Shown piece by piece: positions 1 through 3,000 of a stretch of 8,286 bases of DNA. The position numbers are program-made. Origin of the DNA: Escherichia coli (lineage in GTDB: Bacteria > Pseudomonadota > Gammaproteobacteria > Enterobacterales > Enterobacteriaceae); assembly GCF_024700885.2 (NCBI RefSeq), contig NZ_CP117015.1, one strand, 5' to 3'. Position 1 is the stretch's first letter, and each line of letters opens with the position of its first letter.

Positions 1-3000
1 TCATTGTAATTGCCTTATATGGACGATAGTTGTGCGCATATTGCTATGTTTATGAAGATTGTTAGTTAGTTGACTTATGCATCATTGACAGCGTATCTTC
101 CATTGGAAACGAAAAAACCGCCTTGGCAGGCGGTTTTTCGAAGGTTCTTAGAGTTGGCGCTCTTTGAACCAAGGTAACTGGCTTGGAGGAGCGCAGTCAC
201 CAAAATCTGTTCTTTCAGTTTAGCCTTAACAGGCGCATAACTTCAAGACAAACTCCTCTAAATCAGTTACCAGTGGCTGCTGCCAGTGGCGATAAGTCGT
301 GTCTTACCGGGTTGGACTCAAGACGATAGTTACCGGATAAGGCGCAGCGGTCGGGCTGAACGGGGGGTTCGTGCACACAGCCCAGCTTGGAGCGAACGAC
401 CTACACCGGGCCGAGATACCTACAGCGTGAGCTATGAGAAAGCGCCACGCTTCCCGAAGGGAGAAAGGCGGACAGGTATCCGGTAAACGGCAGGGTCGGA
501 ACAGGAGAGCGCACGAGGGAGCTTCCAGGGGGAAACGCCTGGTATCTTTATAGTCCTGTCGGGTTTCGCCACCTCTGACTTGAGCGTCGATTTTTGTGAT
601 GCTCGTCAGGGGGGCGGAGCCTATGGAAAAACGCCTGCGGTGCTGGCTTCTTCCGGTGCTTTGCTTTTTGCTCACATGTTCTTTCCGGCTTTATCCCCTG
701 ATTCTGTGGATAACCGTATTACCGCCTTTGAGTGCGCTGACACCGCTCGCCGCAGTCGAACGACCGAGCGTAGCGAGTCAGTGAGCGAGGAAGCGGAAGA
801 GCGCCTTATGTGACATTTTCTCCTTACGCTCTGTTGTGCCGTTCGGCATCCTGCCCTGAGCGTTATATCTCTGTGCTATTTTCTACTTCAAAGCGTGTCT
901 GTATGCTGTTCTGGAGTTCTTCTGCGAGTTCGTGCAGCTTCTCACACATGGTGGCCTGCTCGTCAGCATCGAGTGCGTCCAGTTTTTCGAGCAGCGTCAG
1001 GCTCTGGCTTTTTATGAATCCCGCCATGTTGAGTACAGTTTGCTGCTGCTTGTTCATCTTTCTGTTTTCTCCGTTCTGTCTGTCATCTGCGTCGTGTGAT
1101 TATATCGCGCACCACTTTTGGACCGTCTTACCGCCGGTATTCTGCCGACGGGCATTTCTGTCAGACAACACTGTCACTGCCAAAAAACAGCAGTGCTTTG
1201 TTGGTAATTCGAACTTGCAGACAGGACAGGATGTGCAATTGTTATACCGCGCATACATGCACGCTATTACAATTACCCTGGTCAGGGCTTCGCCCCGACA
1301 CCCCATGTCAGATACGGAGCCATGTTTTATGACAAAACGAAGTGGAAGTAATACGCGCAGGCGGGCTATCAGTCGCCCTGTTCGTCTGACGGCAGAAGAA
1401 GACCAGGAAATCAGAAAAAGGGCTGCTGAATGCGGCAAGACCGTTTCCGGTTTTTTACGGGCGGCAGCTCTCGGTAAGAAAGTTAACTCACTGACTGATG
1501 ATCGGGTACTGAAAGAAGTTATGAGACTGGGGGCGTTACAGAAAAAACTCTTTATCGACGGCAAGCGTGTCGGGGACAGAGAGTATGCGGAGGTGCTGAT
1601 CGCTATTACGGAGTATCACCGGGCCCTGTTATCCAGGCTTATGGCAGATTAGCTTCCCGGAGAGAAACTGTCGAAAACAGACGGTATGAACGCCGTAAGC
1701 CCCCAAACCGATCGCCATTCACTTTCATGCATAGCTATGCAGTGAGCTGAAAGCGATCCTGACGCATTTTTCCGGTTTACCCCGGGGAAAACATCTCTTT
1801 TTGCGGTGTTTGCGGCAGAATCGCGTTCAGCGCGTTTTAGCGGTGCGCGTAATGCGACGTTATGGTAAATAGCGATCATGTTATTTGATGTTTTTATTGA
1901 TTATCGCTTTCCTATAAAAAAGTCATTATGACCAGTAACAAAGTAGGAATTTGGAGGGTTTTTCTTCATGCTGCCAAACCCATCTTTTCGTTTCTCTACT
2001 AAAGCTATGAGTCCTATCCCGCTCAGGTAGGCATGCGTCCTAGGTATGTCCGCTTCTGGAATAGAAGTCTGCAAGTTTATTCTTTCAAATGAAGCGCTTG
2101 TATAATGACTGTGATTGTCTCGAACAGCACATAAGTAGATGAACATCTTTAGCGCATAAAGCTCAATCTTGCTTCTTAACTTAAGTTTATGGAATGCTTC
2201 AATCCGTTTGCCATCACGAGATAACAACGCTCTACAAGGCATTTTGCACCAGTCCTTCGAACCATCAAACCCAGGGAATCGGTAGATATTTTTTCGCCTA
2301 ACTTTATCTACTGATAACAGCCCAAGTCTCTCTAAAATATCAATGCCTGATGATATTGATGATCTGCTCAGGGCTGTCAGTTCCGAGAGTTCCTCATAGG
2401 TCGCCTGAGCTGAATAATATGTTATGTAGGTATCTATGTAATGACAGAAAGCCTCTTTACTTTCAGCTCTCATGGACAGCGCTATATACAGTTTTAAGGC
2501 TGCGACCTTATGTGACGGTTTTCCTACCTTGTCATCAGTCCATAAAAGCTCTTTTAAGCGTCCATCTAGTACGAACTTTGAAGGAAATTTTACCCAAGGC
2601 TTCATTGTTACCCCATGCGCATTGCAATAAACAGGATTGATAGAAAGGCGACAAGAACCGAAACCGCCAAGACAAGCGGGGTTAGTTTGTGAGAGTTGTC
2701 TGATAAGTATTTGATTATCATTATATATTTATCGGCTTCCATATAATTTCCTATGGTTTCAGTCTTTTTGATAGGAAAATTTAAGCACGTCTTGGCAATA
2801 TCTATCTAGATATAGGTTAGTCTTTAAAATAAAATTATTCCAATTTTTTCTTTTAAAATCATCTGCTTGAAGCAAAATTGAATCGTCTTTTTAAAGTAAT
2901 CAATAGTTCATGAAAGGGATTGTAGAAGATGTTATGGCGCTGAGGGTGTGGAGCATAAAAGATGCTCTGTCTGGGTGTTTTTATAGCGTATGAAGGAAAT

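Follow-up and report, generated by a model that had tools for sequence, protein, structure and literature searches.

A relaxase-less oriT-nikA-cer module of the NTP16 group on an mph(A) plasmid of Escherichia coli

The small Escherichia coli plasmid p8_MLI114 carries an oriT, a nikA gene, and a cer-like site in direct succession, and it has no relaxase gene; this oriT-nikA-cer module belongs to the published "NTP16 group," for whose definition PMC9282650 and PMC6807383 cite Moran & Hall (2017, Plasmid 89:42). We consider it highly likely that the region is a ColE1-like transfer module of this group, in which an R64/IncI1-type oriT is combined with its own nikA and which is relaxase-less by design, with the NikB of a helper plasmid acting in trans. 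The window analyzed here is the whole plasmid (NZ_CP117012.1; 8,286 bp), with its start rotated by 928 bp. It comes from a stool isolate from Mali, and the source paper mentions mphA plasmids of 8 to 11 kb that belong to no known incompatibility type and does not dissect them (PMC10198576).

The oriT, the nikA gene, and the cer-like site

What kind of backbone carries the module? Rfam RNAI, Pfam Rop, and the identity of the backbone itself all point to a ColE1-type RNAI/RNAII replicon with rop, as found throughout the NTP16 group. At the DNA level, the backbone (160-1870) is 98.5% identical to pOSAK1 and 94-98% identical to NTP16 and pU302S. Homology to all three plasmids stops at exactly 1870, the final base of the XerD arm (Table 1).

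Table 1. Features of p8_MLI114, in coordinates of the window
Feature	Position	Strand	Evidence or remark
RNAI, ColE1-type replicon	109-208	−	Rfam RF00106, 93.6 bits; inside backbone 160-1870 common to pOSAK1
rop (rom), plasmid primer RNA-binding protein	863-1057	−	Pfam Rop PF01815, E 3.5e-32; record: Rop family protein
R64/IncI1-type oriT	1221-1305		BLASTN against R64 oriT, 87.2% over 86 bp, E 1.9e-22
Nick region of oriT	1224-1242		GGACAGGATGTGCAATTGT
Predicted nic site, 5'-CATCCTG/TCC-3' (slash, nick)	1226-1227	−	Homology to R64; 8 bp from inverted repeat; nick expected between 1227 and 1226
Imperfect inverted repeat of oriT	1235-1254 / 1257-1276		Probable NikA-binding repeat
Distal block of oriT	1278-1304		CTGGTCAGGGCTTCGCCCCGACACCCC
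nikA, 107-aa ribbon-helix-helix (RHH) relaxosome accessory protein; PGAP name "MobA"	1329-1652	+	Pfam PF21983, NCBIfam NF041264, PDB 2BA3
cer-like multimer-resolution site	1653-1870		Alignment to ColE1 cer and the corresponding NTP16 region; core pattern match
ARG-box-like palindrome	1728-1741		TGCATAGCTATGCA, in accessory region
Xer core	1842-1870		GGTGCGCGTAA-TGCGACG-TTATGGTAAAT: XerC arm 1842-1852, 7-bp central region 1853-1859, XerD arm 1860-1870
Variable segment adjoining XerD arm	1871-3182		In only 4 PLSDB records
234-aa winged-HTH (wHTH) ORF	1901-2605	−	Weak HTH_36 match, E 2e-4; record annotation wHTH
IS26-bounded resistance unit	3183-8284	−	Flanked by 8-bp duplication CGTCATTG
IS26 copy 1	3183-4002		tnp with premature stop 3550-3552, from a single base change
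mphR(A)	4671-5255		Record annotation; NCBIfam match sub-cutoff
mrx(A)	5255-6493		Record annotation; NCBIfam match sub-cutoff
mph(A)	6490-7395		NCBIfam match Mph(A)
IS26 copy 2	7465-8284

The gene that directly follows oriT had been taken for a member of the MobC family, an assignment that its product does not bear out. The open reading frame, with GGAG 9 nt 5' of the ATG, encodes a NikA-like protein that matches Pfam PF21983 (E 2.8e-18; 66.3 bits against a cutoff of 27) and the NCBIfam model "MobA," NF041264 (113 bits against a cutoff of 80). Its residues 4-48 appear to correspond to the RHH domain of R64 NikA, i.e., NikA(1-51) in PDB 2BA3 (E 2.4e-5), and there is weak similarity to RP4 TraJ. 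MobC models (MobC is PF05713) gave no match, with thresholds of E<=0.1 for Pfam and E<=0.001 for NCBIfam, and BLASTP against ColE1 MobC (MobC/MbeC) returned no alignment at E<=100. Identity to the NikA proteins of conjugative plasmids is 53% for R64 and 55% for IncB/O, while the nikA DNA is only ~66% identical to that of R64. The divergence from R64 is uneven along the protein—45% identity in the RHH part and 67% in residues 52-97—and the gene is intact to the C terminus. The protein is RefSeq WP_000166966.1, which is also found in pU302S and in a 3,176-bp Salmonella plasmid, and it is identical in amino acid sequence to the protein of pOSAK1. All six nucleotide differences between nikA and its pOSAK1 counterpart are synonymous, and the stretch 1160-1447, which includes oriT, does not differ from pOSAK1 at all.

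Could the 107-aa RHH protein instead be antitoxin-like or a regulator of transcription, next to an oriT that is a non-functional relic? The RHH fold is common to CopG-type regulators and antitoxins, weak sub-threshold matches to TacA1 and DUF6290 were seen, and the record carries the GO term "regulation of transcription." We nevertheless regard this as improbable, as the scores of the NikA-specific models exceed the cutoffs by a wide margin, no toxin gene adjoins nikA, and the nick region and distal block of oriT are perfectly conserved with respect to functional IncI oriTs. Near-identical plasmids have, moreover, been mobilized experimentally, according to the mobilization results given in PMC8623487 and PMC9282650.

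The oriT itself appears, on its sequence, to have the full R64/IncI1-type layout: a nick region, an adjoining inverted repeat, and a block containing an 8-bp inverted repeat. The nick region is invariant relative to the IncI and IncB/O oriTs (19/19 positions against R64), as is the distal block (27/27 against R64), whereas repeat A matches R64 at 14/17 positions. We placed nic by the R64/RP4 nick-region consensus (Furuya & Komano 1991; Pansegrau & Lanka). The oriT had also been described as bom-like. An oriT is indeed there, and part of its distal block is common to ColE1 bom, but the nick region aligns with R64 and not with the ...CCAGTATAC... type of ColE1. Because the shared part amounts to a single 24-nt block (1280-1303; 96% identical) and the nick region is a different one, the label "bom-like" is only marginally right.

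The same comparison bears on whether the region is a ColE1-type MobC and bom remnant that would need a ColE1-family (MOBP5/HEN) MbeA/MobA relaxase in trans, which is how the original prediction framed it. The 24-nt block and the synteny with ColE1 (ori, oriT, rop or mob, and then a 107-aa accessory gene) speak for such an origin. The R64-type nick region and the failure of both MobC models and ColE1 MobC to match the protein speak against it, as does helper range: pU302S was mobilized only by IncI1 helpers, while mobC-mobA plasmids were mobilized by IncX helpers too (PMC8623487). A ColE1-type remnant is thus very improbable. The likenesses to ColE1 bom/mobC-mbeABD are those of position by rop, size of the accessory gene, and the GC-rich hairpin block; the nick sequence differs, the accessory proteins are unrelated in sequence, and ColE1 encodes its own relaxase.

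Downstream, the mob region does run straight into the cer-like site, as had been noted: the nikA stop (1650-1652) is followed immediately by a full site. In sequence, this is a putative cer-type site, with XerC and XerD arms, a central spacer within the 6-8 bp range, and ~180 bp of accessory sequence that includes an ARG box; both the core and the ARG-box-like palindrome can be aligned to ColE1 cer and to the corresponding stretch of NTP16. The central region departs from the TGAGACG of the NTP16 group by one base change. A multimer-resolution site right after nikA, with variable segments starting from its outer edge, is again the arrangement of the NTP16 group. The 16-codon ORF said to be the only one beyond the stop was not recovered as such—plus-strand ORFs within the site have 7, 19, 20, and 23 codons—which is a trivial discrepancy. 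Two further plus-strand ORFs, with starts at 1862 and 1878, extend beyond 1870, and a 76-aa minus-strand ORF within the site is unsupported.

Absence of a relaxase gene and relatives of the module

Is a relaxase encoded anywhere else on the plasmid? A tblastn search of the circularized window with two NikB proteins (IncI and IncB/O) gave a best E value of 0.24, and the ten unannotated ORFs of at least 100 aa had no Pfam match. The other large ORFs encode the IS26 transposase, MphR(A), Mrx(A), Mph(A), Rop, and the wHTH protein. The earlier observation that no relaxase gene follows the accessory gene therefore extends to all 8,286 bp. No remnant of nikB was found on the plasmid at either the protein or the DNA level. 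An adjoining cognate relaxase gene, which is missing beside this NikA-family protein, is a trait of the conjugative-plasmid operon context and not of the protein family.

We next asked how the module is distributed among sequenced plasmids. At least 80% of the oriT-nikA-cer stretch is carried by 330 PLSDB records, and the junction is identical in these plasmids, in pOSAK1, NTP16, and pU302S, and in the 3,176-bp ancestor of p8_MLI114. NikA identity across PLSDB is bimodal: 381 records lie at 95% or above and ~3,700 below 60%, with only 7 in the band from 60 to 80%. Six records sampled across the ranking of the first set are plasmids of 2.7-4.0 kb. Those sampled from the second set are, with one exception, plasmids of at least 25 kb, and its I-complex examples carry nikB. 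A search of a 5.8-billion-protein set for closer NikA relatives linked to a relaxase found only orphan relatives or relatives on small contigs. One candidate relative (P0037) proved to be the same gene in a frameshifted copy. Another, an orphan NikA with 64% amino acid identity (P0032/L006), lies on a 1.8-kb metagenomic contig that has no relaxase and has the same oriT layout, its distal block differing at the last base. Compared with this lineage, nikA has a pN of 0.21 and a pS of 0.83; it is under purifying selection. The relaxase-less state is thus old, conserved, and under selection.

These data also bear on the suggestion that the relaxase gene was deleted, in the sense of a recent event in which a nikA-nikB or mobC-mobA operon lost its relaxase gene and the accessory gene became joined to cer. 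In I-complex plasmids nikB begins 10 bp after nikA, so the orphan state must ultimately go back either to loss of nikB or to capture of a lone nikA. A recent loss is nevertheless hardly credible, because the layout is fixed group-wide with one and the same junction, nikA retains its full length under purifying selection, and no nikB-like sequence is left behind. With nikA DNA only ~66% identical to that of R64, any loss of the relaxase would be ancient and older than the group.

How does the module compare with better-known systems? The NTP16 group, as characterized in the accounts in PMC9282650 and PMC6807383, has various segments adjoining the multimer-resolution site; the former also describes the same NikA (~53% identical to that of R64), an R64-like oriT that is highly conserved and has longer inverted repeats, and the lack of NikB. 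Its members NTP16, pU302S, pOSAK1, and pCERC7 share with p8_MLI114 the ColE1 replicon and rop, the R64-like oriT with an inverted repeat of ~20 bp, the absence of nikB, the multimer-resolution site directly 3' of nikA, and cargo that diverges from the XerD arm onward. The difference lies in the cargo only, which in p8_MLI114 consists of a rare wHTH segment and an IS26-bounded mph(A)-mrx-mphR unit. The oriT-nikA-nikB region of R64/IncI1 (MOBP, MPF_I) has the same order of elements (nick region, 8 bp, inverted repeat, 8-bp hairpin block, nikA) and a homologous NikA whose RHH N terminus is like that of PDB 2BA3. In p8_MLI114, however, the module lacks nikB, sits on a high-copy ColE1 replicon, and has a diverged RHH part and repeat A. 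A third kind of system is represented by pEC156 and pSe-Kan, small ColE1-type plasmids with cer and an R64-like oriT that use a relaxase in trans and R64/IncI1 helpers (PMC4743918, PMC9282650). These have no nikA and a repeat A almost identical to that of R64, whereas p8_MLI114 encodes a diverged NikA of its own.

A helper in the same strain and the proposed route of transfer

Does the host strain hold a plasmid that could supply the relaxase? Judging from adjacent accession numbers, the MLI114 assembly (GCF_024700815.2) appears to hold a chromosome, p8_MLI114, and p80_MLI114. The last is an 80.8-kb conjugative plasmid, typed as IncI-gamma/K1, MOBP, and MPF_I, that carries tra, trb, and pil genes. 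Its NikA (WP_001283947.1) is identical to that of R64, and its NikB and oriT agree with their R64 counterparts at 894/900 residues and 169/171 positions, respectively. A search beyond the small plasmid, which the original prediction had proposed, thus locates a NikB gene in the same strain, and, because NikA, NikB, and oriT match those of R64, a cognate relaxase is available in trans in the same cell. The presence of an IncI helper in MLI114 is a new, if minor, observation.

The route of transfer that we propose begins with NikA, the RHH protein, which would bind the inverted repeat at a distance of 8 bp from nic and bend oriT. An I-complex conjugative plasmid in the same cell would supply the NikB relaxase, which would then, presumably through an interaction with NikA, nick the minus strand at or near the predicted CATCCTG/T position, and the nicked strand would be exported via the helper-encoded type IV secretion system (T4SS), the helper being p80_MLI114 in the case of strain MLI114. 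The cer-like site would resolve multimers and would also form the fixed boundary beyond which the cargo of group members differs. In this scheme, the identities in sequence, the lack of a relaxase, the selection on nikA, and the presence of the helper are direct observations, and mobilization by R64 and IncI1 plasmids has been demonstrated in published work on near-identical modules. In that work, pU302S was mobilized by IncI1 helpers and not by IncX1 or IncX4 helpers (PMC8623487), and by F' at very low frequency (PMC9282650); NTP16 was mobilized by R64, as PMC9282650 reports in citing Moran & Hall 2017. The idea that the plasmid is mobilizable only with a relaxase in trans gains support from these cases—pU302S has the same NikA—and from the nikB-bearing IncI helper in the strain. 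A better-matched helper group for NTP16-group plasmids may exist (PMC9282650).

Three observations sit less easily with the module as we read it. NikA and repeat A have both diverged from their R64 counterparts (53% identity and 14/17 matches, respectively). pEC156, an oriT-only mimic, is mobilized by R64 with no NikA of its own (PMC4743918). And a simple scan upstream of nikA found no sigma-70 consensus promoter.

Why would a plasmid that borrows its relaxase keep its own NikA? The pattern of divergence from R64, in which the RHH part has changed more than residues 52-97, would fit a somewhat private recognition of DNA together with a retained surface for interaction with the partner. A bolder possibility, which we hold only tentatively and think rather unlikely, is that the NikA of the NTP16 group recognizes its repeat privately, the two forming a pair that is orthogonal to the NikA and oriT of the helper; relatedly, the Xer site might serve as a recombination junction for swapping cargo. 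The former draws on the 45% and 67% identities of the two parts of NikA and on the matches in repeat A, all relative to R64. If true, a private pair would mean that a plasmid of high copy number could draw on the NikB of several I-complex plasmids and avoid depending on, or titrating, the NikA of the helper, and it might even compete with transfer of the helper. Parts of both ideas had already been raised by Moran & Hall.

The mph(A) cargo and the mobility of the plasmid

Beyond the XerD arm, p8_MLI114 is a 3,176-bp cryptic NTP16-group plasmid that has gained an mph(A) unit, bounded by IS26 and flanked by a target duplication of 8 bp, a finding that is new but minor. The last 8 bp of the variable segment (3175-3182) are one copy of this duplication, and the IS6 transposase in the unit was recognized by NCBIfam. 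When 3183-8284, together with one copy of the duplication, was removed in silico, the reconstructed 3,176-bp plasmid differed from Salmonella plasmid NZ_CP093389.1 by five SNPs.

The biology of relaxase-less NikA/oriT modules is already known, having been published in 2017, and nothing here is therefore new in kind. The value of the finding is practical rather than conceptual: p8_MLI114, a macrolide-resistance plasmid, would be scored as relaxase-less, yet the IncI helper residing in the same cell makes it very probably transferable. Current annotations mislead as well, as PGAP names the accessory protein "MobA" and MOB-suite assigns "relaxase MOBF" to plasmids that have no relaxase gene. Mobility judged by relaxase genes alone misjudges small resistance plasmids.

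The IS26-bounded mph(A) unit and its 3176-bp host plasmid

Two copies of IS26 enclose mph(A), mrx(A) and mphR(A), and this unit is flanked on both sides by an 8-bp direct duplication, CGTCATTG (region 3175-8286 and 1-6). When the unit and one copy of CGTCATTG were taken out in silico, a 3176-bp cryptic plasmid was restored, which lies five SNPs from NZ_CP093389.1, a Salmonella plasmid from Australia. CP099278.1, an E. coli plasmid likewise of 3176 bp, matches the segment between the XerD arm and the unit (1871-3182) at 99.8%; this segment was found in just four PLSDB records, and the winged-HTH protein that it encodes has weak matches to HTH_36 and HTH_34 and to no other family. 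A single base separates the two IS26 copies: position 3552 is A in copy 1 and G in copy 2. In copy 1 (minus strand, codon 3550-3552) the change turns CAG into TAG and cuts Tnp26 to 135 aa. The product of ORF 3930-4178 presumably resembles the C-terminal end of a different IS6-family transposase and may be a remnant of IS6100.

Features of the plasmid and of the matching ColE1 stretch
Feature	Position	Strand	Remark
Hairpin block GGTCAGGGCTTCGCCCCGACAC	1280-1303; ColE1 (L018) 1498-1521
Winged-HTH protein	1901-2605	-	234 aa; directly past XerD arm
mph(A) unit with its two IS26 copies	3183-8284		5102 bp
ORF	3930-4178		reaches into the gap (4003-4670) that separates mphR(A) from IS26 copy 1
IS26 copy 2	7465-8284		intact

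The oriT, the Xer core and relatives of NikA

The GC-rich hairpin block of 24 nt is near-exact in the R64 oriT, the oriT of the NTP16 group (ColE1-like plasmids with oriT-nikA and without nikB) and the ColE1 bom, although the nick region is not the same in all of them. At 1853-1859, in the centre of the Xer core, the window reads TGCGACG, whereas pOSAK1, NTP16 and pU302S have TGAGACG; this central region is 7 bp long, compared with 8 bp in ColE1 cer.

Two further contigs carry relatives of NikA. A 1789-bp Logan contig (L006, from SRR10527121) has at 755-1219 a divergent orphan NikA, with 64% amino-acid identity, together with an oriT whose layout is that of the window, with nick region, repeat and hairpin all kept. 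Neither a relaxase nor a cer-like core was found on this contig, and its similarity to the window is confined to the oriT-nikA stretch. The other, a 4478-bp contig of GCA_045584835.1 (L005), holds the same nikA at 411-770, frameshifted after about residue 64 to give a 119-aa product and followed by an IS3-family element and an HTH_36 protein.

Relaxase and MobA annotations

MOB-suite, as recorded in PLSDB, types five plasmids (NZ_CP117012.1, which is the window's own record, AB011548.2, NC_002090.1, NC_006815.1 and NZ_CP093389.1) as "relaxase MOBF" and "mobilizable"; a relaxase ORF is absent from all five. PGAP labels the 107-aa NikA-like accessory protein "MobA", elsewhere the name of a relaxase. 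Both the MOBF call and the MobA name are misleading annotations.
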